Assembly: GCA_002731775.1 (NCBI GenBank)
Contig: PCCP01000082.1
Coordinates: 2,091-66,090, forward strand
Reading direction: 5' to 3'
DNA length: 64,000 nucleotides
Origin: Gammaproteobacteria bacterium
Lineage (GTDB): Bacteria; Pseudomonadota; Gammaproteobacteria; Pseudomonadales; Pseudohongiellaceae
Of the stretch, positions 1,777 through 63,900 are shown piece after piece (position 1 is the stretch's first letter; each line of letters opens with the position of its first letter). The notes beneath the pieces were generated by a model that ran no database searches, was not told where the DNA came from, and saw only the letters and a list, made by a program, of their open reading frames with translations. Position numbers and translations under genes: made by a program.

Positions 1777-1796
1777 AAAATGGGGGACAGACCGAT
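1777..1796. repeat. R2-type half-site (GGGACAGACC arm)
   Basis: AAAATGGGGGACAGACCGAT in the divergent gap between the DUF3604 and RidA genes. Confidence 0.6.
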
Positions 1797-1862
1797 TATG
1801 CTAGACCCCGGAGAATTATCGGTTTAGCTTAAATCCCTCTGCCACTAACAAAGAGACATGGC

Positions 1863-3083
1863 ATGAAACTCTACACCACCATGACAAGCCTGGTGCTGGT
1901 GCTTGTACTCAATAGTAGCCCGGTTCACGCCCAACACCCCGATACCCAATTCATCGACCCGTCTGGCGGATTCACCCAGGTAGTCAGCACTTCAGACCAT
2001 GGCGTCAAGACGATCTATGTGTCAGGCCAGGTCGGCTCAGGCGAAGATTTCAAAGCCCATGTCGAAAGCGCATTTTCCGCTGTGGTAAGTCGACTCGAGA
2101 GTGCCGGCGCTAGCGTCGACGACGTGGTGAAGATCCGCATCTTCGTCGCAGACTTCGATCCGGCACAGTATGCGGTAATCCGCGAAACAAGGCTGCGCAC
2201 CTTCAATGAAGATGCGTGGCCTACAAGTACCATGGTGGGCGTGGAGTCATTGTTCGCCGCTGAGATGCGGATCGAGATCGAGGCAGTCGCGGTGATAGCG
2301 GATCCCGATGTCCCTGGCGCACGGGTAACGATAGAGCGCATAGGACCATCGAATGGTTTCAACCAGTCTGTAGTGGTGACAGCCAACGGCAGCAGGATAA
2401 TCTATATCTCCGGCCATGTTGGCCAGGGCGAGACACTGGCCGAGCAGTCGGCTTCGATGATGGCGACAATAGCCCAACGCTTGCAGGCGGCCGGTGCCGG
2501 GGTTGACGATCTGGTTAAGATCGTTACCTACATCACCGACTATACGAGGGCAGACGCCTCTATATTCGGCGCAGCCAGAAACGAGGCATTCGGTACTGAA
2601 AATCCGCCAGCCAGTACTCTGCTCGGAGTACAGTCCCTGGTTAGGGATCAATACCGGATCGAAATGGACGCCGTAGCCGTAGTGAGTGATAGTAACAATG
2701 GCGACTTTGAAACCGAGTTCATCGATGTCAACGCCAGCTACACCCAGGCAATAACAACACAGGGAAGCGGTGCGAAAAGGATCACCCTGTCCGGCCAGGT
2801 GGGTAACCCGGATGACGATCTTCAGACCCAGGCCAACCAGGTCTACGCCAATCTGCGGCGGCGCCTGGAAGCCGCGGGGGCCAGCCCCGCCGACCTGCTT
2901 AAGCTGACGATATACATGAATAATTATCAACCCGGCGATGCGTCAGTTCTCGCTATCGCTCGACAGAATAATGGATTTAACCCCGACAATCTCCCGGCTA
3001 CAACCCTGATCGGTGTCCAATCGCTGTACTCCAATGAAGCGCTCATCGAGATCGAAGGGGAGGCGGTGGTAACGGGTAGATAG
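1863..3083 (+). CDS. secreted protein made of three tandem YjgF/UK114 (RidA-like) domains
   Basis: 406-aa ORF with signal peptide MKLYTTMTSLVLVLVLNSSPVHA. Three ~125-aa units each carry RidA-type blocks: KTIYVSGQVG..VVKIRIFV..RIEIEAVAV; RIIYISGHVGQG..LVKIVTYI..RIEMDAVAVV; KRITLSGQVG..LLKLTIYM..LIEIEGEAVV. Confidence 0.85.
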   Translation: MKLYTTMTSLVLVLVLNSSPVHAQHPDTQFIDPSGGFTQVVSTSDHGVKTIYVSGQVGSGEDFKAHVESAFSAVVSRLESAGASVDDVVKIRIFVADFDPAQYAVIRETRLRTFNEDAWPTSTMVGVESLFAAEMRIEIEAVAVIADPDVPGARVTIERIGPSNGFNQSVVVTANGSRIIYISGHVGQGETLAEQSASMMATIAQRLQAAGAGVDDLVKIVTYITDYTRADASIFGAARNEAFGTENPPASTLLGVQSLVRDQYRIEMDAVAVVSDSNNGDFETEFIDVNASYTQAITTQGSGAKRITLSGQVGNPDDDLQTQANQVYANLRRRLEAAGASPADLLKLTIYMNNYQPGDASVLAIARQNNGFNPDNLPATTLIGVQSLYSNEALIEIEGEAVVTGR

Positions 3084-3128
3084 GGACTGATTCTTTTTTT
3101 CCGAAGAAAAATAAATCTGTCCTTTATT
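3081..3128. repeat. R1-type palindromic element
   Basis: TAGGGACTGATTCTTTTTTTCCGAAGAAAAATAAATCTGTCCTTTATT. Its first TAG is the stop of 1863..3083. Confidence 0.85.
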
Positions 3129-3146
3129 AAGACAGGAGAAATTATC

Positions 3147-5187: not shown

Positions 5188-5238
5188 TAAATAGGGACTG
5201 ATTCTTTTTTTCCGAAGGAAAAATAAATCTGTCCCTAT
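5188..5238. repeat. R1-type palindromic element (near-identical copy of 3081-3128, same orientation)
   Basis: TAAATAGGGACTGATTCTTTTTTTCCGAAGGAAAAATAAATCTGTCCCTAT. Confidence 0.85.
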
Positions 5239-5243
5239 GTATC

Positions 5244-5850: not shown

Positions 5851-5875
5851 AAAAAACGGGGTCTGTCCCCTATTT
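5851..5875. repeat. R2-type half-site (reverse orientation)
   Basis: AAAAAACGGGGTCTGTCCCCTATTT. Confidence 0.7.
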
Positions 5876-8803: not shown

Positions 8804-8882
8804 ATGTGGGGTCAGAGTAAAATCTATTTGTAGAATTTCAATTGAAAGCATAGATAGTGAAATAGTTTTTACTCTGACCGCT
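8804..8882. repeat. R4-type palindromic element
   Basis: Arms GGGGTCAGAGTAAAA (8808-8822) and TTTTTACTCTGACCG (8866-8880). The right arm abuts the GGAGG RBS of 8894..9340. Confidence 0.8.
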
Positions 8883-11470: not shown

Positions 11471-11550
11471 AAATAGAGGACAGACCACGTTTTCAGGATC
11501 TTAGCCAGGCTACTACTGCACTAACAGAAAAACGTGGACTGTCCCCTGTT
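11471..11550. repeat. R2-type palindromic element
   Basis: AAATAGAGGACAGACCACGTTTTC ... GAAAAACGTGGACTGTCCCCTGTT. Confidence 0.85.
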
Positions 11551-12662: not shown

Positions 12663-12752
12663 GGGGTCAGCGAACATGGGGTCAGGTCTTTCTTGTTGGC
12701 AATAATAGAACCGGTAATTTGATTCTTGTGCTAACGGGAAAGACCTGACCCC
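12663..12752. repeat. R3-type palindromic element preceded by an extra GGGGTCAG half-site
   Basis: GGGGTCAGCGAACATGGGGTCAGGTCTTTC ... GCTAACGGGAAAGACCTGACCCC, between convergent genes. Confidence 0.8.
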
Positions 12753-12760
12753 GAGGACGA

Positions 12761-13453: not shown

Positions 13454-13535
13454 AAAGTGGGACAGACTACGGTATTCAATTTCTAAAATATGCGTGTTGC
13501 TGCACTAATAGAAAAACCTGGTCCGTCCCCGATTT
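13454..13535. repeat. R2-type palindromic element (diverged)
   Basis: AAAGTGGGACAGACTACGG ... TGCACTAATAGAAAAACCTGGTCCGTCCCCGATTT. Confidence 0.75.
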
Positions 13536-14575: not shown

Positions 14576-14650
14576 AAAAAAGGGACAGAATTATTTACCA
14601 GCGCGACTCTCATCCAATGATGGATCCAAAAATAGATCTGTCCCTATCTA
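14576..14650. repeat. R1-type palindromic element
   Basis: AAAAAAGGGACAGAATTATTTAC ... AAAAATAGATCTGTCCCTATCTA. Overlaps the stop of 14648..15667. Confidence 0.8.
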
Positions 14651-17516: not shown

Positions 17517-17605
17517 CTTGATCCTCCTTATAGAGTCGTCAATGGAGTATAAAGGGCGCCCACAACTTAACAACTTATAGTGCCGAGTGGACACAGCAGT
17601 TCCTG

Positions 17606-17636
17606 AAACTACAGTATTTGTACTCTGACCCATTTA
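17606..17636. repeat. R4-type half-site
   Basis: AAACTACAGTATTTGTACTCTGACCCATTTAT, 19 nt upstream of ATG 17656. Confidence 0.75.
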
Positions 17637-18651: not shown

Positions 18652-18683
18652 AAATTGGGAAAAGACCAAAGCTTAGACTTTTC

Positions 18684-18708
18684 TAAAAACGTGGTCTGTC
18701 CCGAATTT
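18684..18708. repeat. R2-type half-site
   Basis: TAAAAACGTGGTCTGTCCCGAATTT, 13 nt upstream of ATG 18722. Confidence 0.75.
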
Positions 18709-19105: not shown

Positions 19106-19292
19106 TTCCTGCAATGGTGGCTATCGAATCGAACGACGAACCTTATCCTAGTCTACGAAAGCGAAACGGCAGTAACCCCAGGAGAAATTCAGATAATAGA
19201 GTCAATGGTCGCTTCGATAAGAGTTGTTTCCAGGCAATAAATGGGCGCCGGTCCTTTATTCCTGTAGGGAAAATAATTCTGTCCCGATAATA

Positions 19293-20560: not shown

Positions 20561-20595
20561 ATAAATGGGGTCGGAGTAAATATACAGTAGTTTTT
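20561..20595. repeat. R4-type half-site
   Basis: ATAAATGGGGTCGGAGTAAATATACAGTAGTTTTT, 40 nt upstream (minus strand) of start 20521. Confidence 0.75.
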
Positions 20596-20605
20596 GGTGC
20601 AGTAC

Positions 20606-20645
20606 GGGGTCAGGTCTTGCGTGTTAGCAAGCAAGACCTGACCCC
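20606..20645. repeat. R3-type compact hairpin
   Basis: GGGGTCAGGTCTTGC-GTGTTAGCAA-GCAAGACCTGACCCC: perfect 15-bp arms. Confidence 0.85.
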
Positions 20646-20653
20646 AAGAGCTT

Positions 20654-21177: not shown

Positions 21178-21228
21178 AAAAAGGGACAGAACTATTTTCC
21201 TGAAGAAAACAGATCTGTCCCTATTTTC
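21178..21228. repeat. R1-type palindromic element
   Basis: AAAAAGGGACAGAACTATTTTCC TGAA GAAAACAGATCTGTCCCTATTTTC. Confidence 0.85.
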
Positions 21229-21245: not shown

Positions 21246-21267
21246 TTTTTACTCTGACCCCATTTAC
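21246..21267. repeat. R4-type half-site
   Basis: TTTTTACTCTGACCCCATTTAC, 18 nt upstream of ATG 21286. Confidence 0.8.
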
Positions 21268-21285: not shown

Positions 21286-22137
21286 ATGGACAAAATCAGA
21301 CGCAAATTGCTCAAAACCGGCGTCGCCGCTACCTTGATGGCAGCGACACCGCAGGTGTTTTCACAACAGATTGGGCAATCCGGAGAAGCCATGTCTATCT
21401 ACGAAAGAGGCGATGTTAGCATCCGCTACGAAGAGTCGGGCTCTGGGTTTCCGTTGTTGCTTATAGCCGGCGGTGGCCTGGACTCCTCGATCGCAAGCAT
21501 CAAACGGGGCCGGCCATTTAATCCCATCGAAGAGTTCAAAGGCGAGTACCGCACTATCGTGGCGGATCTGCGTAACGCCAACGGTGGGCAATCCAGTGGG
21601 CCGCTGGAGATCGAGCGGCCATGGGATTCGTTCACCGACGACCACCTGGGACTGATGGATCATCTGGGTATCGACAAATTCATGGTGTTGGGTTTTTGTA
21701 TCGGCGGGCCTTTTATCTGGAACCTGCTGGAGCGCGCACCGGATCGTGTCGTTGCGGCGGTGTTGGCGCAGCCCAGCGGGTTCAGTCCGGAACATCCCGA
21801 ACTATTCCACCAACGCAATATGGCGGGTTGGGGGCCTGAGTTTGTCAAACGTCGGCCCGAGATCAGCATGGAAATGGTAGACCAGTTCCTTACCGAGATG
21901 TACATCACCAATGGTGACTTCGTGTTTACAGTAACGCGCGATTTCGTGCGCAGCTGCCAAACCCCCGTACTAATTCTGCCCGATGATATTCCGGTACATC
22001 CCTACGCCGTTGCCATGGAAGCGGCAATGCTCGCACCAAATGCCGAGGTGAGCCTGTTTCCATGGAAACAGCCTGAGGAGAGAATAGCGCTTGCGGTTCG
22101 CCATATACGATCATTCCTCAGGGCGCATCGAAAATAA
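21286..22137 (+). CDS. alpha/beta-fold hydrolase with Tat-like leader
   Basis: 283 aa. Leader MDKIRRKLLKTGVAATLMAATPQVFS. Core GFPLLLIAGGG ... FMVLGFCIGG. Confidence 0.65.
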   Translation: MDKIRRKLLKTGVAATLMAATPQVFSQQIGQSGEAMSIYERGDVSIRYEESGSGFPLLLIAGGGLDSSIASIKRGRPFNPIEEFKGEYRTIVADLRNANGGQSSGPLEIERPWDSFTDDHLGLMDHLGIDKFMVLGFCIGGPFIWNLLERAPDRVVAAVLAQPSGFSPEHPELFHQRNMAGWGPEFVKRRPEISMEMVDQFLTEMYITNGDFVFTVTRDFVRSCQTPVLILPDDIPVHPYAVAMEAAMLAPNAEVSLFPWKQPEERIALAVRHIRSFLRAHRK

Positions 22138-22153
22138 ATCTGTCCCTATTTAC
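22130..22153. repeat. R1-type half-site
   Basis: GAAAATAAATCTGTCCCTATTTAC. It contains the TAA stop of 21286..22137. Confidence 0.8.
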
Positions 22154-22157
22154 GCTT

Positions 22158-22190
22158 AAACTACTGTATTTTTACCCTGGCCCCATTTAT
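22158..22190. repeat. R4-type half-site
   Basis: AAACTACTGTATTTTTACCCTGGCCCCATTTAT, 43 nt upstream of ATG 22234. Confidence 0.75.
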
Positions 22191-22233: not shown

Positions 22234-24426
22234 ATGAAAACAAAAACACCATTATCGAGAATCACCCTTGCAGCTTGCCTGTTGGCCCTCGCGGCCTGCG
22301 GTCAGCCGGAGCAAGAAACCTCAGCTCAAGCTGAGCCAGTTGTCTCCGACGCGCCAGGTATCAGCTCCGATCAGAATGATATCGGGGGCGTCGTCACCAG
22401 TACTGACGGTCCTGAAGCCGGGGTATGGGTCATCGCCGAAACCGACGATTTACCAACTCTCTATTCAAAAACCGTTGTAACCGACGAGGACGGGCGCTAT
22501 CTCATGCCTGACCTGCCTGCGGCGCAGTATGACATTTGGGTGCGAGGTTACGGCCTGGTCGACTCGGAGAAAGTCAATGCCGTTCCCGGTCAATCCCTGG
22601 ATCTGAACGCGGTGATCGCGCCCGATGCCGCTGCGGCCGCTGCTTATTACCCTGCCGGGAACTGGTACTCGCTGTTGGAGATCCCGGCCAGGAGTGAATT
22701 TCCCGGTACCGGTGCGGACGGTAACGGTATTTCTCCCAATATTCACAACCAGGCTGACTTTATGCGGCGGGTGAGTAGCGGCGGCTGCCTGGCCTGTCAC
22801 CAGTTGGGCAACGCGGCAATCCGAAACATACCTGGCTTATTCAGTGGTTACGATACGTCAATTGAAGCCTGGGATCGTCGCGTGCGATCGGGCCAGGCCG
22901 GCGGCTCCATGAGCAGGGCCCTGGCCGGTATGGGTGGCCGAGCGCTGCAGATGTATGCCGACTGGACCGACCGGATTGCGGCCGGTGAGTTACCGCCGGT
23001 ACCGGAACGCCCTTCTGGCCTGGAACGCAACGTGGTCATTACCCAATGGGACTGGGCGGATCCCACCGCTTACCTGCACGATCTCGTTTCCACCGACAGG
23101 CGCGATCCGACCAGGAATGCTTACGGCAAAATCTATGGCGCCCTGGAAAACAGCGCGGATTATCTGCCGGTACTGGATCCCCAAACGAATACCATAGCCC
23201 AGATCCCAGTGTTCCCGGAAGACCCGGATTACAATCCCGAGCCGTCCCGTCCTATGGCGGAATCACCCTATTGGGGTGACGAACCGATCTGGGATGCCTC
23301 GACTACAGTACATAATCCCATGCTGGATCAGGATGGCAGAGTCTGGATCACTGCCCGGGCACGGGCCCCGCAAGATGTACCGGCGTTCTGCCAGGAAGGC
23401 TCCGATCACCCGTCTGCGCAGGCATTTCCATTGGGACGCTCCGGGCGACATCTCGGTGTCTATGATCCGGACACGGAAGTGTATACCCCGATCAATACCT
23501 GTTTCGGCACCCATCACCTGATGTTCGCCGAGGACGCAGACAATACCCTGTGGACCAGCGGCGGCGGCAGGGTGATCGGCTGGCTGAATACTCGCCAATA
23601 CCTGGAAACAGGCGATGCGGTGGCGGCTCAGGGGTGGACACCGTTCATTCTGGATACCAACGGCAACGGACGGCGGGACGAAGATTACGTTGAGCCGGAC
23701 CAAGCGGTTGACCCATCGCGGGACAAGCGCATCAACTCCGGTTTTTACGCCGTGTCGCCAGCGCCAGATGGGTCTGTGTGGGGCTCCAACCTCAGCTATC
23801 CCGGCGCCGTCGTGCGATTGATGCCGGGTGACGATCCCAGCGTTACCGCACTGACCGAATATTATGAACTGCCGCTCGATGCCAATGGCGATCCGATCGA
23901 GGGATTCTCGCCCCGCGGTATGGATGTCGACCGCAACGGTGTCGCCTGGGTAGCTCTGGCCAGTGGTCATATGGCGAGCTTCGACCGCTCCCTCTGCCAG
24001 GGTCCGTTGAACGGCCCGGAGGCGACAGGCCAGCACTGCGCGGAAGGCTGGACCTTCTATACCGAGCCACTGCCCCAGTTCAAGAATATCGATACGTCGG
24101 GCAGCTCCGAAGGCAGCTATTACACCTGGGTGGATCAGTTCGATACCTTCGGGCTGGGTGAAAACACGCCGATCAATACGGGAAATCAATCGGGCGCGCT
24201 GTTAGCGCTCAATGATGGCGAGTGGGTTCGCTTGCGGGTGCCTTATCCGTTGGGCTTCTACACCAAGTGGATTGATGGCCGTATAGATGACCCTGATGCT
24301 GGATGGAAAGGTCGTGGTTTGTGGACAACCTTTAGCAGCAGAGCGCCTTTTCATATGGAGACCGGTGCCGGGACATCGAGCAAGGTTTACCATTTTCAGA
24401 TGCGGCCTGACCCTTTAGCTAAATAG
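22234..24426 (+). CDS. lipoprotein with N-terminal carboxypeptidase-regulatory-like domain and a single heme-c motif
   Basis: 730 aa. Lipobox LLALAACGQ. GGVVTSTDGPEAGVWVIAETDD..TVVTDEDGRYLMPDLPAAQYDIWVRGYG. CXXCH = CLACH. Confidence 0.6.
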   Translation: MKTKTPLSRITLAACLLALAACGQPEQETSAQAEPVVSDAPGISSDQNDIGGVVTSTDGPEAGVWVIAETDDLPTLYSKTVVTDEDGRYLMPDLPAAQYDIWVRGYGLVDSEKVNAVPGQSLDLNAVIAPDAAAAAAYYPAGNWYSLLEIPARSEFPGTGADGNGISPNIHNQADFMRRVSSGGCLACHQLGNAAIRNIPGLFSGYDTSIEAWDRRVRSGQAGGSMSRALAGMGGRALQMYADWTDRIAAGELPPVPERPSGLERNVVITQWDWADPTAYLHDLVSTDRRDPTRNAYGKIYGALENSADYLPVLDPQTNTIAQIPVFPEDPDYNPEPSRPMAESPYWGDEPIWDASTTVHNPMLDQDGRVWITARARAPQDVPAFCQEGSDHPSAQAFPLGRSGRHLGVYDPDTEVYTPINTCFGTHHLMFAEDADNTLWTSGGGRVIGWLNTRQYLETGDAVAAQGWTPFILDTNGNGRRDEDYVEPDQAVDPSRDKRINSGFYAVSPAPDGSVWGSNLSYPGAVVRLMPGDDPSVTALTEYYELPLDANGDPIEGFSPRGMDVDRNGVAWVALASGHMASFDRSLCQGPLNGPEATGQHCAEGWTFYTEPLPQFKNIDTSGSSEGSYYTWVDQFDTFGLGENTPINTGNQSGALLALNDGEWVRLRVPYPLGFYTKWIDGRIDDPDAGWKGRGLWTTFSSRAPFHMETGAGTSSKVYHFQMRPDPLAK

Positions 24427-24530
24427 GGGCAGATTTATTTTCCCGGGCGGCCGCGACCACGGTGCTCGATACGCACGCAATAAATAGGGACAGAACTATT
24501 TTTCTACTGAAAATAAATCTGCCCCTATTT
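24421..24530. repeat. R1-type composite: perfect 22-nt outer inverted arms enclosing a third half-site
   Basis: AAATAGGGGCAGATTTATTTTC (24421-24442) and its exact reverse complement (24509-24530). Inner AAATAGGGACAGAACTATTTTT (24482-24503). Confidence 0.9.
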
Positions 24531-26620: not shown

Positions 26621-26704
26621 TAGGGGACACTAATAGTTTAATAGCTTAACGACAAACTAGCCCTAATCACCAGCCTTAAGCTATTAAACTATTAGTGTCC
26701 CCTA
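26621..26704. repeat. R6: perfect 29-bp inverted repeat with 26-nt loop
   Basis: TAGGGGACACTAATAGTTTAATAGCTTAA (26621-26649) and its exact reverse complement (26676-26704), between convergent genes. Confidence 0.9.
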
Positions 26705-26718
26705 TTGCCTATTGCCTT

Positions 26719-27268: not shown

Positions 27269-27300
27269 GAGAGTACAGGGTCAGGTCTTGCCTGTTAGCA
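27269..27300. repeat. R3-type half-site (GAGAGTACAGGGTCAGGTCTTGCC variant)
   Basis: GAGAGTACAGGGTCAGGTCTTGCCTGTTAGCA. The first 24 nt are identical to 30261-30284. Confidence 0.85.
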
Positions 27301-27381
27301 TGGGAATTAGAAGTAATTCATGCTTGCGCTATAACTCAGATAGAGCCATTTGCCACGGAAGGTTGAGGATACACTTAAGAT

Positions 27382-27561
27382 GTGGTTCGTCATCAGGGAA
27401 AAGCTGTAGACTTTAATCCCCAGCGTAAGCTTCCGTTCCCGCAGATTATCCAGGTAGTAGCAATAGTCATCCGCCTCGACAAACACCGCCTTGCGGTTGT
27501 GCCCTCGCTGCACAATATGGTGCGGTATCCCTGCCACAATAACCCTCGCTTTCCTTGGCAT
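27382..27561 (-). pseudogene. N-terminal fragment of a REP-associated tyrosine (Y1, IS200-like) transposase (RAYT)
   Basis: MPRKARVIVAGIPHHIVQRGHNRKAVFVEADDYCYYLDNLRERKLTLGIKVYSFSLMTNH matches the first ~60 aa of RAYT-type transposases up to the HUH motif. Similarity stops at 27382; the rest of ORF 27307..27561 is unrelated. Confidence 0.8.
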
Positions 27562-27634
27562 GGCTGGCTACCCCCCAAGCAAACTCTACCAGGAATCTTT
27601 AGACCTGCCCGCGTCCTGGTGTCAACCATTCACC

Positions 27635-27694
27635 GAAAATAAATCTGTCCCTATTTACTATATACTTTTGTAATTAGGGACAGCTTTAATTTTG
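27635..27694. repeat. two R1-type half-sites in outward-facing arrangement
   Basis: GAAAATAAATCTGTCCCTATTTAC (27635-27658) and AATTAGGGACAGCTTTAATTTTG (27672-27694). Confidence 0.8.
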
Positions 27695-27712: not shown

Positions 27713-28831
27713 ATGAGAAGACTGCTTACCACTATTGCTTGCTTATTTATTGCCGCACCCTGCGCGCTCGCTCAATACGCCCCGCAGATTTCGATTGAAT
27801 CCGTTCCCGACTTCTTTCAGCTACCACAGGGTATGAATTTTGGTGAAGCCTCCGCCATCGCAGTGAATTCACAAGGCCATATTTTTGTATTTCACCGATC
27901 CAACCCCTCTGGGGGTGGCCCCGCTTATGGCATGCATGCTGCGCAGCTATTTGAATTTGATAGCAACGGCCGCTATCAACGAGAACTCGGGCGGGGCTTA
28001 TACGCCTGGTCGTTTGCCCACGGGCTGCGCATAGACAGCAACGACAACATCTGGACCGTGGACAAAGGTTCCAACATGGTGGTGCGCATGGACCCCTCCG
28101 GCAGGGTGGTGTGGGTGTTCGGCAGAAAGACAGAATCGGTATCCGAAGCGGCCCGACCCTTCGAACATGTGGACACACCCCGACCTCCCCAGGATGGCCG
28201 TTTTCGCGAGCCCACGGATGTGGCGGTTGATTCGGCAGGCAACATTTACATCACCGATGGCTATATCAATTCCCGCGTCGCCAAATATGATTACAATGGT
28301 GACTGGGTAAAATCCTGGGGCGAACCGGGAACCGGCCCCGGACAGTTTCGACTCCCCCATAGCATCGCCATCGACAAGGCTGACAACGTCTATGTGGGGG
28401 ATCGTTCCAATGCCCGCATTCAAGTGTTCGACACCGATGGCAATTACCTGCGTGAATTCCGCGTAGCCACCCCGGTGCGTCCTGGCTCGAAGGCGGTTAA
28501 CGGACCCACGCCTACCGAACTCACCGAGATCAGTGCCAACGGCGCCCCCAATTCTTTGTGTATCCCACCGGGCAGCGACGTGATCTTCGTCGGGGAAACC
28601 ACTTTTCCAGGACGCATTATCAAAGCGACCTTACAGGGAGAGGTGCTGGGAGTCATTGGTAATTCAGGTAGGAATCTGGGAGAATTTTCTGGTGCCCATG
28701 GCCTCGCCTGCCCGTCAGAAGACGTTTTGTATGTGGCAGAGACGTCTAATTCTCGAGCGCAGAAGTTGCTTATTGGGGAACAGGGACAGATTTATTTTCC
28801 TGGGCGGGAGCGTCAGCGCTTCAAAAAATAA
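27713..28831 (+). CDS. exported NHL-repeat six-bladed propeller, peptidyl-alpha-hydroxyglycine lyase (PAL)-like
   Basis: Start moved to ATG 27713 (MRRLLTTIACLFIAAPCALA). NHL repeats: HGLRIDSNDNIWTVDKGSNMVVRMD, PTDVAVDSAGNIYITDGYINSRVAKYD, PHSIAIDKADNVYVGDRSNARIQVFD. The last 17 codons lie inside a repeat element. Confidence 0.7.
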   Translation: MRRLLTTIACLFIAAPCALAQYAPQISIESVPDFFQLPQGMNFGEASAIAVNSQGHIFVFHRSNPSGGGPAYGMHAAQLFEFDSNGRYQRELGRGLYAWSFAHGLRIDSNDNIWTVDKGSNMVVRMDPSGRVVWVFGRKTESVSEAARPFEHVDTPRPPQDGRFREPTDVAVDSAGNIYITDGYINSRVAKYDYNGDWVKSWGEPGTGPGQFRLPHSIAIDKADNVYVGDRSNARIQVFDTDGNYLREFRVATPVRPGSKAVNGPTPTELTEISANGAPNSLCIPPGSDVIFVGETTFPGRIIKATLQGEVLGVIGNSGRNLGEFSGAHGLACPSEDVLYVAETSNSRAQKLLIGEQGQIYFPGRERQRFKK

Positions 28832-28846
28832 ATCTGTCCCTATTTA
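28781..28846. repeat. R1-type palindromic element (long form)
   Basis: CAGGGACAGATTTATTTTCCTGGGCGG ... AAAAAATAAATCTGTCCCTATTT. The left arm lies inside CDS 27713..28831. Confidence 0.85.
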
Positions 28847-30260: not shown

Positions 30261-30284
30261 GAGAGTACAGGGTCAGGTCTTGCC
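30261..30284. repeat. R3-type half-site (direct copy of 27269-27292)
   Basis: GAGAGTACAGGGTCAGGTCTTGCC, 8 nt before the RAYT fragment. Confidence 0.85.
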
Positions 30285-30292
30285 CACTGCCG

Positions 30293-30376
30293 ATGACCAA
30301 TCACTACGATCTATTGATCGAAACGCCCGATGCGAATCTTTCTGTGGGAATGCGCCATCTCAATGGCGTTCACACC
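30293..30376 (+). pseudogene. internal fragment of a RAYT/Y1 transposase (HUH region)
   Basis: MTNHYDLLIETPDANLSVGMRHLNGVHT matches LMTNHYHLL.ETP..NLS.GMR.LNG.YT of this transposase family. HUH is degraded to H-Y-D. Similarity ends about 30376 where the IS3 stub begins. Confidence 0.7.
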
Positions 30377-30384
30377 CTGCCCAG

Positions 30385-32743: not shown

Positions 32744-32810
32744 CAACAGGGACAGAATTAGTTTCCTATTGAGACTTGGCCCATTTGGAAAATTGGATCT
32801 GTCTCTATTG
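32744..32810. repeat. R1-type palindromic element (diverged)
   Basis: CAACAGGGACAGAATTAGTTTCC ... GGAAAATTGGATCTGTCTCTATTG. Confidence 0.7.
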
Positions 32811-32885
32811 CTGATTTGCCTTAACGATAATACCTGGACTAATCTACACTGCGTCGAAACTGACTGGTTAAAGAGGGAGTAGCAC

Positions 32886-35507: not shown

Positions 35508-35509
35508 AT

Positions 35510-35582
35510 AGGGACAGACCACGTTTTTCGATTTCAGAGACTGGCTAATTGCCGTCCGAATAGAAAAACGTGGTCTGTCCCT
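35510..35582. repeat. R2-type palindromic element, perfect 20-bp arms
   Basis: AGGGACAGACCACGTTTTTC (35510-35529) and GAAAAACGTGGTCTGTCCCT (35563-35582), between convergent M14 and S9 peptidase genes. Confidence 0.9.
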
Positions 35583-35591
35583 AGTTTTGTT

Positions 35592-38092: not shown

Positions 38093-38161
38093 AAATGGGA
38101 CAGATGTATTTGTCTTCCGAGGGAAAAACATATCGGGCGGCAGGGGCAGATCTGAAATATT
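38093..38161. repeat. two R1-like half-sites in direct orientation
   Basis: AAATGGGACAGATGTATTTG (38093-38112) and CAGGGGCAGATCTGAAATATT (38141-38161). Confidence 0.6.
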
Positions 38162-38203: not shown

Positions 38204-38225
38204 AAATTACTCTGACCCCTTTGAT
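38204..38225. repeat. R4-type half-site
   Basis: AAATTACTCTGACCCCTTTGAT. Confidence 0.7.
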
Positions 38226-39597: not shown

Positions 39598-39681
39598 AAA
39601 AAATAAGGACAGACCCCGTTTTCCTGTTGAAGCCGGAGTTGGCCTATCTCAGCAATGAAAACGTGGTGTGTCCGCATTTTT
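39598..39681. repeat. R2-type palindromic element (diverged), preceded by an R5-like TCCATTTGCACA fragment (39583-39598)
   Basis: AAAAATAAGGACAGACCCCGTTTTCC ... GAAAACGTGGTGTGTCCGCATTTTT. Confidence 0.75.
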
Positions 39682-40355: not shown

Positions 40356-40510
40356 CAGCTGTGACCCAATGAATCATATTGTGGTTCAATGACCGCCATT
40401 GCGTCAACCCCTGGCTGGTTTATGTCCGCTCGTCTATTGGTCCGGGAGTGGATAATGGCGACAAACTAAATTTTTTGGAATTCTGTGGCAGCTCGATAAC
40501 TGCAACAAAT

Positions 40511-40537
40511 GAAAAACGTGGTCTGCCCCTATTTATT
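40511..40537. repeat. R2-type half-site
   Basis: GAAAAACGTGGTCTGCCCCTATTTATT, 36 nt upstream of ATG 40574. Confidence 0.8.
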
Positions 40538-45485: not shown

Positions 45486-45508
45486 AAGAGGGCAGACCGC
45501 GTTTTCAG
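45485..45508. repeat. R2-type half-site
   Basis: AAAGAGGGCAGACCGCGTTTTCAG, between the stop at 45485 and the phnX ATG at 45538. Confidence 0.7.
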
Positions 45509-47523: not shown

Positions 47524-47605
47524 GGGTCAGGAATTTCGGGGTCAGGTCTTGCATGTTAGCGTAGGAAATTGGGCGTGCTAACACGCAAGACCTGACCCCG
47601 AATTC
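47524..47605. repeat. R3-type palindromic element preceded by an extra GGGTCAG half-site
   Basis: GGGTCAGGAATTTCGGGGTCAGGTCTTGCATGTTAGC ... GCTAACACGCAAGACCTGACCCCGAATTC. Confidence 0.85.
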
Positions 47606-48120: not shown

Positions 48121-48175
48121 AAAAGGACAGATCATGTTTTAGATGTTTCTGAAAACGTGGTCTGTCACTATTTTT
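48121..48175. repeat. R2-type palindromic element (compact)
   Basis: AAAAGGACAGATCATGTTTT AGATGTTTCT GAAAACGTGGTCTGTCACTATTTTT. Confidence 0.8.
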
Positions 48176-50367: not shown

Positions 50368-50425
50368 AAAAATGAGACCAGAGTAAATATACAATACTGT
50401 ATAATTACTCTGACCCCATTTATAA
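50368..50425. repeat. R4-type palindromic element (compact)
   Basis: AAAAATGAGACCAGAGTAAATATACAATACTGTATAATTACTCTGACCCCATTTATAA. The right arm ends 19 nt before ATG 50445. Confidence 0.8.
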
Positions 50426-51155: not shown

Positions 51156-51180
51156 TAAAAATGGGGTCTGTCCCTATTTT
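51156..51180. repeat. R2-like half-site
   Basis: TAAAAATGGGGTCTGTCCCTATTTT. It contains the TAG stop (51176-51174, minus strand) of the acetoacetyl-CoA synthetase gene. Confidence 0.75.
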
Positions 51181-53144: not shown

Positions 53145-53211
53145 GGTGGCTAATGCTGTGTAAGACAAAGGGACGGGCATCGGAATGATAACCTAAACCT
53201 ATTTCACTGTC

Positions 53212-53290
53212 GGGGTCAGGTCTTGAATGTTGCGTCAATCACGGGCAAAAGCTGAGCAATGCTAAATTGCAAGACCTGACCCCGGAATTC
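53212..53290. repeat. R3-type palindromic element
   Basis: GGGGTCAGGTCTTGAATGTTGC ... GCTAAATTGCAAGACCTGACCCCGGAATTC. Confidence 0.85.
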
Positions 53291-54651: not shown

Positions 54652-54740
54652 CAAAAAATGGCGATAGACCATGTTGTTCTTATTGTGTGGCGAGATTGCT
54701 GGCGTCTAAGACAGAAAAACGTGGTCTGTCCCCATTTTTC
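54652..54740. repeat. R2-type palindromic element (left arm degenerate)
   Basis: CAAAAAATGGCGATAGACCATGTTGTTC ... GAAAAACGTGGTCTGTCCCCATTTTTC. Confidence 0.75.
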
Positions 54741-54808: not shown

Positions 54809-55924
54809 ATGACTTACATCACGCGCCGAGGTTTTTTCCAGCAAGCAGGCATAATCACCGCAAGTGGCCTCGCCCTCAGCGGCGCCCTACCAGGGCCCGT
54901 GACAAAGTCGGCGCTGGCCCAGCCCATGCCCGACTGGCTTTCACTGACCGAAGAGCCGGCGCTCGAACCAGAGCTTCCCATCATCGACCCCCATCACCAT
55001 CTATGGGACCGTCCTAATAATCGGTATATGCTCGAGGATCTTATCGAAGACACCCGGGCGCACAACGTGCGGCAGACGGTCTTCGTCGAGTGTACATCGA
55101 TGTACCGTGCCGATGGACCGGAAGAGCTTAGAGTGGTTGGCGAGACCGAGTTCGTGCAAGGCGTCGCGGCGAAGAGTGCCAGCGGTGGCTACGGTGAGAC
55201 GCGGGTAGCGACGGGTATCGTCGGTTCCGCCAACCTCCGCTTGGGTGATCGAGTGGCAGCGGTGTTGGAAGCGCAGATTGCAGCCAGCCCGCAGCGTTTT
55301 CGCGGCATTCGCCATCGCGCGGCGTGGGCGGATCGGACTGTGGTCCCAAACCAGCGCGCCGACGCGCCAGAACATATATTGCTGGATCCGGACTTCCGCA
55401 AAGGCTACGCCCACCTGCGTACCTACGGTCTGTCATTCGAAGGTTGGCTCTATCACACCCACATCGATGACCTCACCGACCTCGCGAAAGCGTTCCCGGA
55501 CACCACCATCATCTTCAACCACCTGGGCGGGCCAATCGGGGTGGGTTCCTATGCCGGGCGTCGGGACGAGGTGTTCGCCGCCTGGAAACCGGCCGTCGCC
55601 GAGTTAGCGCAATGCCCGAATGTCGTCGCTAAGGTCGGCGGTATCCAGATGGTCGTCAATGGTTACCGCTGGCACGAACTGGAGCGACCGCCGACCTCGG
55701 ATGAGCTGCTGCAGGCTAATCAGGATTGGTACAACTACACAATCGACCAGTTTGGACCCGACCGCTGCATGTTCGAGAGCAATTTCCCGGTGGACAAGCT
55801 GTCGTGTTCCTACACGGTGCTGTGGAATCAATTCAAGAAGCTGACGCGGGGATTCTCCGCCGACGAGCGTGCCGCCATGTTTCACGACACCGCAATGCGC
55901 GTGTACCGGCTACCGCGGGTTTAG
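54809..55924 (+). CDS. Tat-exported amidohydrolase-2 family metal hydrolase
   Basis: Start moved to ATG 54809 (MTYITRRGFFQQAGIITASGLALSGA). IIDPHHHLWD metal motif. FESNFPVDK near the C-terminus. Confidence 0.75.
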   Translation: MTYITRRGFFQQAGIITASGLALSGALPGPVTKSALAQPMPDWLSLTEEPALEPELPIIDPHHHLWDRPNNRYMLEDLIEDTRAHNVRQTVFVECTSMYRADGPEELRVVGETEFVQGVAAKSASGGYGETRVATGIVGSANLRLGDRVAAVLEAQIAASPQRFRGIRHRAAWADRTVVPNQRADAPEHILLDPDFRKGYAHLRTYGLSFEGWLYHTHIDDLTDLAKAFPDTTIIFNHLGGPIGVGSYAGRRDEVFAAWKPAVAELAQCPNVVAKVGGIQMVVNGYRWHELERPPTSDELLQANQDWYNYTIDQFGPDRCMFESNFPVDKLSCSYTVLWNQFKKLTRGFSADERAAMFHDTAMRVYRLPRV

Positions 55925-55926
55925 CA

Positions 55927-55972
55927 GGGGGTCAGGTTTTTCCATTTGCACCTCGGCTGAGCAAGACCTGAG
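55927..55972. repeat. R5/R3 hybrid element
   Basis: GGGGGTCAGGTTTTTCCATTTGCAC ... GCAAGACCTGAG. Confidence 0.65.
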
Positions 55973-56002
55973 TAATTGACGAGGGGCATCGGAAACGTAT
56001 TC

Positions 56003-56048
56003 GGGGTCAGATCTCCATTTGCTCATGTGCAAATAGCGACCTGGCCCC
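56003..56048. repeat. R5-type imperfect hairpin
   Basis: GGGGTCAGATCTCCATTTGCTCATGTGCAAATAGCGACCTGGCCCC. Confidence 0.75.
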
Positions 56049-56059
56049 GATGTCTTTTC

Positions 56060-57123: not shown

Positions 57124-57228
57124 GGCTGATCTCCTTAATTCTTTATGTACGCCCTGAATTTCCTGGCGTATACCACGGTAGAAGAAACGATATTCTGGTC
57201 AATCGCGATTGCAAAGTCTAGTCACGCA

Positions 57229-57252
57229 GGGAGTCAGGTCCCCATTTGCACA
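57229..57252. repeat. R5-type half-site
   Basis: GGGAGTCAGGTCCCCATTTGCACA. Confidence 0.7.
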
Positions 57253-57285
57253 TATCCAACAGGTGGATTCAATTAATCAATAGGG

Positions 57286-59280: not shown

Positions 59281-60258
59281 CTATTCAATAACGCGGACAG
59301 TAACGTCGACATGCCCGGTTAAGCCACCATCATCAGCCCTGCCCCGCATCACATACTCGCCAGGTTCTTGAAAGATAGTTTCAGTCCGCACCACTCCATC
59401 CTCTGGCATTTCCGGCGGATCCCAAAACGGCGACCAGGGCGAATTCTGAAAGGCGCGGGTGTCTTCCCAGGTTTTCACCTGTAGGGTGTCATAACTAGGC
59501 TCCCCGTTGCCGCGATAGACAAACCAGGAGAAGGTCATGCCCACTACCCTGTCGACGGTGCCGCGGATGGGAGGCCGCAGGGCTTTTTCCAGCCGTTTCC
59601 GCGGGGTTTCGTCTTCATCGAGGGGCGCATAGCGTCGATAGGTACGATAATCGGGTTTTCCGTCGTCTACTATGGTTACTTCGAGTTGCAGGGGCTGACC
59701 CACCCGTACCATGCGCATGTTGTCGCCGTGCAGGATCACTGTGGGTGGGGCATTGCTCTGCACGTCGTCGGAGTTACTGAAGCCACCAGCCACAGTGCCG
59801 GATTCAGACATGATGGTGATGGGTTCCAGGACGTAGTCTTTGAGCAGGGAACCGTAGGCGGTCTGGGTGACGCCGTCGCCGTTGATCAGGGTCCACACCA
59901 ATTCACCTTCGAAGTCTGCCGCTACCTTGATGCCGAACACGTTACGGTTACGACGGGGAAGAAAATGGGTGGGTTGACCCCGGTCGGCTGGGCCCGGTGA
60001 AAAGGAATTTACCGGGCCGATGGGTACGTTCAGCTCCTGTTTCCAGTTTTCATTCATGTAACCGAACAACAGGGTATAGGAGCCATCTTCGTTGAGGACC
60101 CAGCCCTCGTAGGCGGGTGATATGCCTCTCCCAGATTCGTAGGAGGATTGGGACTGGGCGGCGGTATTACTGCTGAACAAAACTAGAGCCCACAGGAATA
60201 ACGCCGTTGATACAAATCGCGTTATTGCACTGCCTGTGGTATTGGCCCTGCTTTTCAA
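59281..60258 (-). CDS. hypothetical exported protein
   Basis: ORF 59281..60381 overlaps the upstream gene. Best start is TTG 60258 (AAGGA RBS 7 nt upstream), giving MKSRANTTGSAITRFVSTALFLWALVLFSSNTAA. No family recognised. Confidence 0.55.
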   Translation of the reverse strand: MKSRANTTGSAITRFVSTALFLWALVLFSSNTAAQSQSSYESGRGISPAYEGWVLNEDGSYTLLFGYMNENWKQELNVPIGPVNSFSPGPADRGQPTHFLPRRNRNVFGIKVAADFEGELVWTLINGDGVTQTAYGSLLKDYVLEPITIMSESGTVAGGFSNSDDVQSNAPPTVILHGDNMRMVRVGQPLQLEVTIVDDGKPDYRTYRRYAPLDEDETPRKRLEKALRPPIRGTVDRVVGMTFSWFVYRGNGEPSYDTLQVKTWEDTRAFQNSPWSPFWDPPEMPEDGVVRTETIFQEPGEYVMRGRADDGGLTGHVDVTVRVIE

Positions 60259-60313
60259 GAAATCGTCCTTCGCTCGCTTTACTTCCTTCACTCTCGCTTG
60301 CCGCAGCAGCTCG

Positions 60314-61735: not shown

Positions 61736-61934
61736 GGAGGCCTCTCCTTCAACCCTCACTAAAACCGGTAAAGCAGCGGGATTTTGAACGATTTGCAGTA
61801 GTTGGTTATTTCAACAGTTATCGGCCATTTACGCAATGCCATTCTGGACTTCCACTTCCGCTCAGCGGGTATAGCTCAGCCCGCCGATTAGTGCCAAACT
61901 GTCACCAAAAATACAGCCCTATGGAAGCCTACAA

Positions 61935-63875
61935 TTGAAAAATAAAATTCTACCGCTTACTTGCTTCACTATTTCTCTCTCCTTTTTGTTCACCTACTCG
62001 GCAATTACACAAGCTGCTGAAGTCAACTCTGCCTGGAGCTACTGGGGCGCAACCAAGGCGTTCAATCGCTACTCCCCGGCAGCTCAGATCGATGCTGAAA
62101 GCGTATCTGAGCTGAAAATCCTCTGGCGGCGCCCCGCCGTCGATTCCTCAATAATGAGGGCCTACCCGGAATTGCGGGTATCCGGCAATCTGCGCTCCAC
62201 GCCGATCCTGATCGATGGGGTGCTCTACGCCGCCAATGGTGTCGGCCTGGCAGAGGCCTTCGACCCAGCCACGGGCGCGACCCTGTGGGTGCAGCTGCCC
62301 GATGCCCCTACGCAGGAATCGGTGCGCGGGGGCAGTACCCGCGGCCTGGAATACTGGGCCGATGGCTCTGATAGCCAGCTGCTGGTGATTCGCAAGGGCT
62401 ACCTCTATGCCCTGGATCCGGCGAGCGGCAAAGCCATTCCCCGTTTCGGTGACGCTGGCCGGGTTAGTCTGATTCCAGCGGGCGCCCATTCCTACAGCTA
62501 CAATTCTGGCGGGCCCATCGTGGTGAACGATGTGATTGTGGTTGCCGGTACGGTTGACGGCGCTGGCGACAGCGGTGCCAAGTGGCGGGGCGTGGCCTCG
62601 GAGGACGTGCGGGGTTACGACGTACGAAGCGGGGAGCTATTGTGGACATTTCACGCGGTGCCGCAGGAGGGTGAATTTGGATTCGACACCTGGGAAAACG
62701 ACTCCGCAAGAGAGTCCGGTGACCTCGGTGCCTGGTGCTGCCTGAGTGCAGACGAGGATCTTGGCTATGTGTATGTGCCTTTCACCGCGCCGACGGCCGC
62801 CTATTACGGTGGCCACCGCCCCGGGGACAACCTCTATTCCAATAGCCTGGTGGCCATCGATGTGACTACCGGGGAACGAGTCTGGCATTTCCAGATGGTG
62901 CATCATGACGTCTGGGAATACGACAATGTTGGCCCGCCGGTGCTGGGTGAGATCAACGTCGATGGGCGCACCATCAAGGCGGTAATGCAGGCCAACAAGA
63001 CCGGCTGGGTGTATGTGTTCGATCGGGTCACGGGCGAACCGGTGTGGCCTATTGAGGAGCTGCCGGTGCCACAGTCCGGCACGCCCGGCGAAGTGATGTC
63101 GCCTACCCAGCCCTTCCCCACCCGGCCGGCACCGATTGCGAGCCAGGGTGTTAGCCAGGCGGACATCATCGACTTCCCGGAAGTGGGCCAGATCGCCCGG
63201 GCGACGGTCGCGAATTTTGTGATCGGCCCTATCTTCACGCCTCCGTCTATTGCCAGTGACGAAGTGGGTAGCACCCAGGGCACACTGACACTGCCGGGCT
63301 CTTGGGGCTCGGCGAACTGGAACACCGGCGCCTTCGATCCGGTGACCGGCTATTACTACGGCTTCGCCAATGACATTCCCCGGGTTTACCGTCTGCAACT
63401 GGCCACCCAGGACGATGCCGAGATGGATTACTGGAGCCCCAATCGCGAAGCGCCTTATATCGATGGCATCCCGCTCACCAAACCACCCTGGGGTCGGATC
63501 ACCGCGATTGACATGAATCGTGGCGAACATGTGTGGCAAGTGGCTAACGGGGATTCCCTCAGTGATCACCGGTTACTGGCCGATCTCGATCTGCCGACCC
63601 TGGGCATCGCCAGCCGGCCGGTGGCGCTGGTCACCAGCACGCTGCTATTTATAGGCGAAGGCAGCAACCTGCACGGTGGGATCCAGCCCAATATGTGGGG
63701 AAGGATGTTCAAGGCCTATGACAAGTTGACCGGTGAGTTGCTTTGGGAGATGGAGTTACCCTCGGCAACCACAGGGGGACCTATGAGCTACATGCACGGG
63801 GACAAGCAGTACATCGTAGTAGCGCTGGGAAGTTTGGGTGGTGCTGCAGAGTGGGTGGCATTGGGGCTGCCTTGA
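61935..63875 (+). CDS. PQQ-dependent quinoprotein dehydrogenase (second paralog), exported
   Basis: 646 aa, TTG start, signal peptide. GERVWHFQMVHHDVWEYD, TGEPVWPIEE, PPWGRITAIDMNRGE. Confidence 0.85.
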   Translation: MKNKILPLTCFTISLSFLFTYSAITQAAEVNSAWSYWGATKAFNRYSPAAQIDAESVSELKILWRRPAVDSSIMRAYPELRVSGNLRSTPILIDGVLYAANGVGLAEAFDPATGATLWVQLPDAPTQESVRGGSTRGLEYWADGSDSQLLVIRKGYLYALDPASGKAIPRFGDAGRVSLIPAGAHSYSYNSGGPIVVNDVIVVAGTVDGAGDSGAKWRGVASEDVRGYDVRSGELLWTFHAVPQEGEFGFDTWENDSARESGDLGAWCCLSADEDLGYVYVPFTAPTAAYYGGHRPGDNLYSNSLVAIDVTTGERVWHFQMVHHDVWEYDNVGPPVLGEINVDGRTIKAVMQANKTGWVYVFDRVTGEPVWPIEELPVPQSGTPGEVMSPTQPFPTRPAPIASQGVSQADIIDFPEVGQIARATVANFVIGPIFTPPSIASDEVGSTQGTLTLPGSWGSANWNTGAFDPVTGYYYGFANDIPRVYRLQLATQDDAEMDYWSPNREAPYIDGIPLTKPPWGRITAIDMNRGEHVWQVANGDSLSDHRLLADLDLPTLGIASRPVALVTSTLLFIGEGSNLHGGIQPNMWGRMFKAYDKLTGELLWEMELPSATTGGPMSYMHGDKQYIVVALGSLGGAAEWVALGLP

Positions 63876-63879
63876 GTAG

Positions 63880-63900
63880 AGTCCGGTCTCCCTCTGCACA
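63880..63900. repeat. R5-like half-site
   Basis: AGTCCGGTCTCCCTCTGCACA, 5 nt after the stop of 61935..63875. Confidence 0.45.

Follow-up and report, generated by a model that had tools for sequence, protein, structure and literature searches.

The analyzed window, a 64,000-nucleotide stretch of contig PCCP01000082.1 (positions 2,091 to 66,090, forward strand) from assembly GCA_002731775.1 of an uncultured marine gammaproteobacterium, carries a dense set of intergenic repeats. These occur as inverted pairs of short arms or as solo half-sites and share a GGG[AT]CAG (GGGWCAG) core, the head, at their outer ends. An initial annotation had also reported remnants of a Y1 transposase among them; the window indeed contains two such fragments, which come from two lineages, here TIRYT-A and TIRYT-B, and each of which lies beside an arm of one repeat family. 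The G+C content of the window is about 50–59%. Six loci are 99.7–99.9% identical to it, and a protein from the window is encoded on many marine metagenome contigs and in the metagenome-assembled genome (MAG) GCA_003482575.1; within its 90% protein clusters, the taxonomic labels are Gammaproteobacteria, Pseudohongiellaceae or Porticoccaceae.

The core occurs 61 times in the window, compared with 16.83 ± 3.63 times (maximum 24) in 100 dinucleotide shuffles. Of these copies, 41 are intergenic (about 6.9 kb of sequence) and 20 lie within open reading frames (ORFs; about 57 kb). Its intergenic concentration is about 30-fold, and several of the ORF-located sites fall in over-extended ORF ends or starts. 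The two most frequent 8-mers of the window are GGGACAGA and GGGTCAGG. A longer shared terminus, AAAT(A/G)GGG(A/G)(A/T)CAG, had been proposed at first; in this literal form (AAATRGGGRWCAG) it matches only two sites, and the GGGWCAG core and family profiles were therefore used instead. The AAAT prefix is found in families R1, R2 and R4, and not in R3 or R5. Searches with nhmmer profiles built from family seeds (E ≤ 0.05, plus a few hand-added variants) returned about 61 half-sites (R1, 18; R2, 17; R3, 12; R4, 8; R5, 4; R6, 2), which agrees with the initially noted abundance at a count below the roughly 70 given there. The inverted pairs (about 23) and solos (about 20) belong to R6 and to five arm families with multiple copies. 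The motif first assigned to 43 positions was present at about 40 of these; the R5 sites at 59222 and 63880 and the R2 site at 1777 are weak (E 0.2–0.4), and the R5 site at 39583 is an arm without a head. Altogether, the elements cover 1.9 kb, i.e., 3% of the window and about 28% of its intergenic DNA, at about one half-site per kb. As the initial annotation had stated for gaps longer than about 60 nt, most of them are occupied (28 of the 39 gaps of at least 60 nt), with elements in 17 of 20 tandem, 7 of 9 convergent and 4 of 10 divergent gaps, the same preference as reported for repetitive extragenic palindromic (REP) sequences.

Clustering of the sequences that follow the head, in the window and related loci, recovered four of the proposed arm subfamilies, R1 (GGGACAGATTTATTTTC), R2 (GGGACAGACCACGTTTTTC), R3 (GGGGTCAGGTCTTGCATGTTAGC) and R4 (GGGGTCAGAGTAAAAATACAGTAGTTT), and R5 (GGGGTCAGnTCTCCATTTGCACA) was recovered separately in a profile search with its initially noted seed. 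R6 has a single copy in the window and a 90% identical copy, in another context, in a sister species (locus L024, 3876–3965). The heads read GGGGTCAG in R3, R4 and R5 and GGGGACAC in R6; R1 and R2 vary, most copies having (A/T)GGGACAG and some GGGGACAG. R2 pairs have a constant length of 80–82 nt and poorly conserved loops, in line with the initial view of conserved arm ends around a drifting interior. Ten representative pairs fold as single-stranded DNA (ssDNA) hairpins, with z scores of −3.9 to −11.7 relative to shuffles. Single consensus arms reach 0 to −0.4 kcal/mol, no better than shuffles, and are not self-complementary. No Rfam family matched at gathering score anywhere in the window. 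The exact arm sequences are absent from the searchable literature, in which only irrelevant primer matches were found. Scans of viral contigs gave two matches to the R2 pattern, judged to be at chance level from the size of the collection rather than by computation, and none to the R4 pattern.

R3 belongs to TIRYT-A. In the window, a TIRYT-A fragment (MTNHYDLLIETPDANLSVGMRHLNGVHT, 30281–30382) directly follows a truncated R3 arm, and its database relatives carry the Pfam domain Y1_Tnp. An initial homologue search with a 46-residue fragment of this REP-associated tyrosine transposase (RAYT)-like protein as query returned two short fragments only. The intact gene is present in a sister species (JADFIJ01), which shares synteny and about 90% nucleotide identity with the window. 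There, locus L030 contains an intact ORF of 279 amino acids with an HUH motif (NHYHLL), a tyrosine region (WSSY) and a helix–turn–helix (HTH) at the C-terminus. This protein matches Y1_Tnp with 45.2 bits (cutoff 23), and its residues 246–276 weakly match HTH_23 (E 2.4e-4, under the gathering score). The ORF lies between inverted R3 arms, the left of which is located about 70 nt before the ATG, while the right one overlaps the stop codon; one of the initially named subfamilies thus flanks an intact transposase gene. The position of this R3–TIRYT-A–R3 unit is the exact site of the R2 solo at 51157–51180 in the window.

Homologues of TIRYT-A number in the thousands, are about 280 residues long and about 60% identical, and many bear the annotation RayT or REP-associated tyrosine transposase. 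Homologues from Gilvimarinus sp. DA14, a Pseudohongiellaceae population and a 79%-identical metagenomic contig lie between inverted GGGGTCAGGTCTTGAAT.. or GGGGTCAAGTCTTGCG.. arms (GGGGTCAGGTCTTG.. or GGGGTCAAGTCTTG..). A scripted comparison of 80 metagenomic loci, whose homologues are 51–60% identical, revealed, at about 60 of them, flanking inverted repeats with GTCAGGTCT or a variant that differs by one base; the exact string occurs at about 48, and the arms diverge past the head. Within this lineage, 13–16 nt are conserved (GGGGTCAGGTCTT), not merely the 7 nt of the core. The R3 arm itself was found in four or five marine gammaproteobacterial MAGs, JADFIJ01 among them, in a scan of one genome per species. 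Because such arms flank homologues so widely, R3 can be regarded as the local form of a repeat class that is widespread and tied to the TIRYT-A clade. Some arms at the metagenomic loci (..GGTCTTTCATTGTGCATA, ..GGTCTCCCATTGC) are R5-like, and R5 probably belongs to TIRYT-A as well.

R1 belongs to TIRYT-B, a Y1 lineage distinct from TIRYT-A, an assignment that follows from R1 arms lying next to both the window fragment and its homologues. Hidden Markov models (HMMs) run on six-frame translations identified the fragment at 27561–27382 (−), which encodes MPRKARVIVAGIPHHIVQRGHNR...LMTNH (MPRKARVIVAGIPHHIVQRGHNRKAVFVEADDYCYYLDNLRERKLTLGIKVYSFSLMTNH) and is truncated at the HUH motif. An R1 arm (27634–27656) is located about 70 nt upstream of its ATG, a geometry like that of R3 and TIRYT-A. 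Homologues are 68–73% identical and mostly pseudogenised. On the unrelated contigs L123 and L126, GGGGACAGATTTATTT precedes the start by 55–85 nt, the L128 gene is enclosed by 25-nt inverted GGGACGTACTTATTTA-type arms, and a further homologue has GGGACGCATTTATTT. The conserved string of this lineage, GGGGACAGATTTATTT, again spans 13–16 nt. TIRYT-B is known from fragments only, and the C-terminal HTH was assessed in TIRYT-A alone. Two HMMs applied to six-frame translations of the window and 172 kb of related sequence detected no Y1 remnants beyond these two lineages.

The called TIRYT-B gene is only 91–103 residues long in L123, L126, L127 and L128, which are four distinct sequences, and also in L130 and L131, which share one sequence. 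In L127 and L128, the coding sequence visibly runs on out of frame. Every match to the 60-residue query (P0123–P0189; loci L123 and L126–L133) has at most 105 residues, to which candidate picking may contribute. The TIRYT-B lineage looks widely pseudogenised.

The shared head had been taken at first as a sign that one protein recognizes all ends. Accordingly, a single transposase would read GGG[AT]CAG and mobilise all arm families in trans, with the arms as neutral passengers. The head is indeed common to all families, the HMM searches found no enzyme for R2, R4 and R6, and hybrid pairs occur, such as the R5 arm joined to an R3-like arm at 55924–55971. Head-only duplications at 12664 and 47524 furthermore suggest that DNA is cut and rejoined at the head. 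However, R3 and R1 are tied to separate Y1 lineages, both in the window and in unrelated metagenomes (R3 to TIRYT-A in L030 and at about 60 of 80 loci; R1 to TIRYT-B in the window, L123 and L126), and each lineage conserves 13–16 nt rather than 7 (GGGGTCAGGTCTT and GGGGACAGATTTATTT, respectively). The families also expand independently, as in the sister species, which is rich in R3 and R4 and poor in R1 and R2, and the literature reports family-specific enzymes (PMC3733652; PMC6006769). Since GGGGWSAS is a class-wide signature of TIRYT substrates, a shared terminus is no evidence of a single enzyme, and we consider one enzyme for all families improbable.

This signature comes from a known group of elements. 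Di Nocera, De Gregorio & Rocco (2013; PMC3733652) described RAYT-like genes that are flanked by terminal inverted repeats (TIRs) instead of REPs, and named the elements TIRtrons and their enzymes TIRYTs. The TIR repeats share GGGGWSAS and are dispersed as singles, dimers and clusters in some genomes (section 16 of that work); they were called “moderately abundant”, and TIRYTs were suggested to be “less productive” than RAYTs. Quentin et al (2018; PMC6006769) classified TIRYTs as TnpA-Y1 subclass 2.1, with a C-terminal HTH_23, HTH_28 or DnaA_C-like (Bac_DnaA_C-like) domain and ends of the form GGGG[AT][CG]A[CG], and found no REP-like dispersed repeats for this subclass. R3 and TIRYT-A share with TIRtrons a Y1/HUH enzyme longer than RAYTs (279 residues), a C-terminal HTH and an arm that overlaps the 3′ end of the gene, and also non-palindromic TIRs, a GGGGWSAS-type outer end and dispersed single, dimer and cluster copies. 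The repeats of the window differ in that at least five families coexist, at about one half-site per kb, and in that most R1 and R2 heads have three G instead of four. We put the probability at roughly 80% that the repeats are non-autonomous derivatives of TIRtrons, with doublets formed by gene loss and several transposase lineages coexisting. The element type and its terminal motif are already catalogued, so that the refuting outcome named in the initial annotation, a match to a known REP/MITE family, applies in part; what is unusual here is the copy density and the number of families.

On this TIRtron model, the ancestral unit would be a RAYT-like Y1/HUH ssDNA transposase gene (TIRYT, TnpA-Y1 subclass 2.1) between two TIRs of 20–45 nt, whose outer ends bear the class signature, here as GGGGTCAG or GGG(G)ACAG. 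Loss of the gene would leave the arms about 5–40 nt apart, as a doublet of 45–90 nt that could form a long hairpin when single-stranded; doublet loops resemble the sequence beside the left arm of the L030 unit, which argues for such an origin. The doublet is likely the mobile unit, analogous to a REPIN, and solos would be decayed doublets. The coexistence of several families would reflect several transposase lineages with separate arm sequences that are, or once were, present in this bacterial lineage. By analogy with IS200/IS605 and TnpA-REP, the enzyme may bind the ssDNA hairpin, probably at the replication fork, cleave and rejoin DNA at the conserved head and transpose without target-site duplication. 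The head-only duplications, which are seen at 12664 and 47524 and also in the L038 and L042 flanks, suggest the head as the cut-and-rejoin point. As both transposase copies of the window are dead, present-day activity, if any, has to stem from intact copies in other parts of the genome.

Several observations weigh against an origin from TIRtrons. TIRYT-A scores 72.4 bits against the NCBIfam RAYT equivalog NF047646, below the cutoff of 80, its profile matches TnpA-REP (4er8) only weakly (E 0.023), and a phmmer search with TIRYT-A against the Protein Data Bank gave no match. Most R1 and R2 copies carry A or T before GGGACAG and so agree with 7 of the 8 positions of GGGGWSAS. Close homologues next to R1-type arms show the upstream arm only, and a clear right arm is seen only in the more divergent L128. 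The two HMMs detected no transposase for R2, R4 or R6 in the window or the 172 kb of relatives. Both Y1 genes of the window are fragments. Finally, no insertion with clean boundaries was caught, the differences between relatives are not polarised between mobility and deletion or recombination, and the absence of target-site duplications is only suggested.

The comparison with relatives that the initial annotation had proposed revealed both missing and retained elements. In the orthologous gaps, the sister species lacks both the R4 pair at 50368 and the R2 pair at 48121, and it has an R3 hairpin at window positions 44053–44177, where the window has none. Other pairs are conserved at orthologous gaps (R3 at 53211 and 47534, R2 at 13454). 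In L030 (reverse complement), the R2 pair at 54652–54738 keeps its termini, and its interior is swapped for an unrelated segment of about 190 nt. The R2 solo at 45486 is a case of decay from pair to solo, because the sister species (L020) has a full R2 pair there. R3 and R4 are abundant and R1 and R2 scarce in the sister species, so each family rises and declines on its own. At the 8807–8879 site, a degenerate R4 pair is present in a more distant species (about 77% identity), which also has an R3 pair where the window has R2 and other solos. A block of 3.6 kb (about 17636–21245, four genes) has direct R4 arms at both edges in the window, and in its place the sister locus L029 (500–700) has a single, complete R4 hairpin whose stem measures about 45 bp. 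This R4-bounded difference suggests a repeat-mediated insertion or deletion with nested elements. The centre of the sister hairpin holds the R1-like sequence AATAGGGCCAGAACTATTTT.

Repeats also coincide with breakpoints. Synteny with the 98.4%-identical locus L134 (3150–3330) stops exactly at an R3 head (window 30270), where L134 continues with an R1 pair and then different genes (cupin, MacB/FtsX). The string GAGAGTACAGGGTCAGGTCTTGCC, 9 nt of flank plus 15 nt of R3, is present at both 27269 and 30261. Directly outside an R1 head (window 24525), the near-identical strains L001–L003 and L134 carry an 8-nt tandem duplication, TATTTCTT; no other multi-base indel separates the window from L001–L003 over 22 kb. 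Many TIRYT-A homologues come from contigs of TIRtron length (about 1 kb), which suggests that the flanking repeats routinely break metagenome assemblies. L011 (CAUZIR010000271), a contig labelled as a Dehalococcoidia MAG, is 78.922% identical to window positions 5976–8070 over 2116 nt, the same identity as L033, which comes from a Gammaproteobacteria MAG; L011 carries an R3 arm and probably derives from a gammaproteobacterium and was mis-binned.

Terminal inverted repeats with a variable interior are also the anatomy of classical miniature inverted-repeat transposable elements (MITEs), which could derive from a DDE insertion sequence, e.g., an IS3-type element, whose family is represented in the window by an OrfA gene (30385–30735), or a Tn3-like element with GGGG ends. 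No DDE transposase is bounded by the arms in the loci examined; the arms bound Y1 genes instead. Target-site duplications were not visible in the two occupied-versus-empty comparisons with the sister species (50368 and 48121), where the flanks have diverged. A DDE origin is the least probable of the explanations weighed here, and very unlikely. Known bacterial MITEs (Correia/NEMIS, RUP, ERIC) resemble the elements in being small, non-coding, gene-adjacent and RNA-foldable, with terminal inverted repeats, but they depend on DDE enzymes and have target-site duplications, neither of which was seen. Likewise, Tn3-type ends (GGGG...) were rejected for lack of an associated Tn3 transposase, and integron attC sites and DNA-uptake sequences were dropped because their ends are different and the elements bound Y1 transposase genes.

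The hairpins might instead be primarily host regulatory devices under selection, i.e., bidirectional terminators or stabilisers of mRNA 3′ ends, with an incidental link to transposases. Most pairs follow genes and occupy tandem or convergent gaps, TATTT comes after the G+C-rich base of many stems, and several pairs are kept at orthologous sites. A scan with an intrinsic-terminator consensus (G+C-rich stem, loop of 3–8 nt, T-run) gave chance-level counts in the window, which makes another transcript-ending signal possible, and had almost no overlap with the pairs, whose A+T-rich stems and long loops escape it. On the other hand, about 20 solos are unable to form hairpins, many of them just upstream of start codons, and divergent gaps contain elements too. 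Moreover, the same arms bound transposase genes across many taxa, and among close relatives presence varies and the family at a site is replaceable. Predicted sigma-70 promoters are at or below chance in the window and do not coincide with repeats, and the promoter-like impression of solos directed at a downstream start codon comes from only about 11 versus 5 cases. A primarily regulatory origin thus appears even less probable than a single enzyme, while a secondary transcriptional effect of 3′-end hairpins, as terminator or stabiliser, is plausible. The sole strong canonical intrinsic terminator of the window (19293–19318, +; 11-bp stem and T-run) directly follows an R1 solo.

Among Y1-associated repeats, the closest parallels to these TIRtron-like elements differ in distinct features. 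Pseudomonas REPIN–RAYT systems (Bertels & Rainey, 2011; PMC3116915) share an inverted doublet as the mobile unit, a long hairpin, singlets as decay products, a repeat-flanked transposase gene, several families per genome, each with its own enzyme, and persistence at orthologous sites. Pseudomonas REPs, however, are short palindromes with a GT[AG]G tag and shorter Group 2/3 RAYTs, whereas the arms described here are not self-complementary and have a GGG(G)WCAG tag. Escherichia coli REPs and bacterial interspersed mosaic elements (BIMEs) are likewise abundant intergenic hairpins found mainly after genes, served by a distantly homologous HUH/Y1 nuclease, TnpA-REP (4er8). In contrast to the elements here, they are individual stem-loops of about 35 nt with a 5′ GTAG, and TnpA-REP has 165 residues and no HTH tail. 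Non-palindromic single arms, on which neither a GTAG nor a CGTC tag was found, rule out classical REPs or BIMEs; of the initially proposed REP/BIME or MITE likeness, what holds is that these are non-autonomous elements tied to Y1 (IS200-like, RAYT-type) enzymes. IS200/IS605 elements belong to the same Pfam Y1_Tnp superfamily, with a presumed ssDNA-hairpin mechanism without target-site duplication, but have subterminal hairpins at each end rather than long TIRs and multiply as whole elements, not as gene-less doublets.

The elements and remnants are listed in Table 1. The TIRYT-A fragment is abutted by a stand-alone IS3-family OrfA-like gene (30385–30735, −; Pfam HTH_Tnp_1, 43.9 bits) without OrfB, which is kept in several assemblies and may be a domesticated or decayed IS remnant. 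An unusually long stretch at 59090–60313 is free of repeats and has no clean long ORF in the crude gene map, where ORFs of the two strands overlap; a mis-called or degraded gene may lie there.

Table 1. Repeat elements and transposase remnants in the window, with the evidence for each (E, profile search E-value; dG and z, folding energy and z score).
Position	Strand	Feature	Evidence
1778..1793	+	weak R2-like head GGGGGACAGACC	nhmmer E 0.36
3081..3125	.	R1 inverted pair, variant left arm GGGACTGATTC...	profile search
5189..5240	.	R1 inverted pair, convergent genes on both sides	dG -13.8, z -6.3
5852..5875	-	R2 solo half-site	E 1e-6
8807..8879	.	R4 inverted pair; degenerate orthologous copy in more distant L033	profile, folding, comparison
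11471..11550	.	R2 inverted pair, ~81-nt unit	profile, folding
12664..12754	.	R3 inverted pair (12674-12754), extra head-only copy GGGGTCAG before it at 12664	profile
13454..13535	.	R2 inverted pair; kept at orthologous site in L014	profile, comparison
14577..14649	.	R1 inverted pair; extra R4-like solo within its loop in L014 (another MAG)	profile, comparison
17605..17635	-	R4 solo; left direct repeat of 3.6-kb segment missing from sister L029	profile, comparison
18683..18708	-	R2 solo	profile
19268..19288	-	R1 solo	profile
20562..20594	+	R4 solo, long arm	E 3e-10
20603..20648	.	R3 inverted pair, 15-bp stem, short loop	dG -20.9, z -8.9
21178..21226	.	R1 inverted pair	profile, folding
21246..21266	-	R4 solo; right direct repeat of 3.6-kb segment	profile, comparison
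22129..22189	-	R1 solo (22129-22151), then R4 solo (22157-22189), same orientation	profile
24420..24530	.	R1 solo (24420-24443) and R1 inverted pair (24482-24530)	profile
26621..26712	.	R6 inverted pair, 29-bp perfect stem, head TAGGGGACAC	dG -26.9, z -11.1
27274..27363	+	R3 left arm and 5′ leader, decayed TIRYT-A unit	78% to L030 unit positions 12-98
27382..27561	-	TIRYT-B N-terminal 60 codons, cut at LMTNH (HUH) motif	HMM, six-frame translation
27634..27656	-	R1 arm ~70 nt upstream of TIRYT-B start codon (left TIR of unit)	profile
27672..27690	+	weak R1-like half-site	E 0.3
28779..28845	.	R1 inverted pair	profile
30266..30283	+	truncated R3 arm; synteny break vs L134	profile, comparison
30281..30382	+	TIRYT-A internal fragment MTNHYDLLIETPDANLSVGMRHLNGVHT, with HYD as mutated HUH motif	90% nt identity to L030 gene
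32246..32309	.	R3 inverted pair, 22-bp perfect stem	dG -26.4, z -11.7
32745..32817	.	R1 inverted pair, right arm degenerate	profile
35506..35587	.	R2 inverted pair, convergent genes on both sides	dG -29.7, z -10.3
38097..38113	+	weak R1 half-site	E 0.11
38207..38222	-	R4 solo, short	profile
39600..39680	.	R2 inverted pair, degenerate; R5-like arm adjoins at 39583	profile
40510..40534	-	R2 solo	profile
45486..45507	+	R2 solo; full R2 pair at site in sister (L020)	profile, comparison
47524..47603	.	R3 inverted pair (47534-47603), orthologous in L020; head-plus-flank duplication before it at 47524	profile, comparison
48121..48174	.	R2 inverted pair; missing from orthologous L020 gap	profile, comparison
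50368..50422	.	R4 inverted pair; missing from orthologous L030 gap	profile, folding, comparison
51157..51180	-	R2 solo; intact R3-TIRYT-A-R3 unit at site in sister	profile, comparison
53211..53286	.	R3 inverted pair; orthologous, ~95% conserved in L030	profile, comparison
54652..54738	.	R2 inverted pair	profile
55924..55971	.	hybrid pair, left arm R5, right arm R3-like	profile
55999..56050	.	R5 inverted pair	profile, folding
57226..57253	+	R5 solo	profile

A bolder extension, which we regard as unlikely though less so than any of the alternatives weighed above, is that subclass-2.1 TIRYTs have driven an expansion on the scale of REPINs in this Pseudohongiellaceae-like lineage. If the window is representative, this would amount to thousands of genome copies in at least five families, occupying about a quarter of the intergenic DNA. 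R2, R4 and R6 would then be cross-mobilised via the shared GGGNCAG head as a minimal cleavage or recognition module, with the arms acting as hairpin-forming ballast.

The window reveals no new kind of element, and its significance lies in providing a natural, well-documented case for a little-studied branch of the RAYT world: TIRYTs can yield abundant multi-family hairpin doublets, as RAYTs yield REPINs. The heads of 13–16 nt, which are kept across homologues that are only about 50–60% identical, consist of nucleotides that are probably read by the enzymes, and the R3 doublet together with the L030 enzyme offers ready substrates for the biochemistry of subclass-2.1 Y1 transposases. Furthermore, the repeats account for the breaks in assembly and synteny of these widespread marine MAGs.

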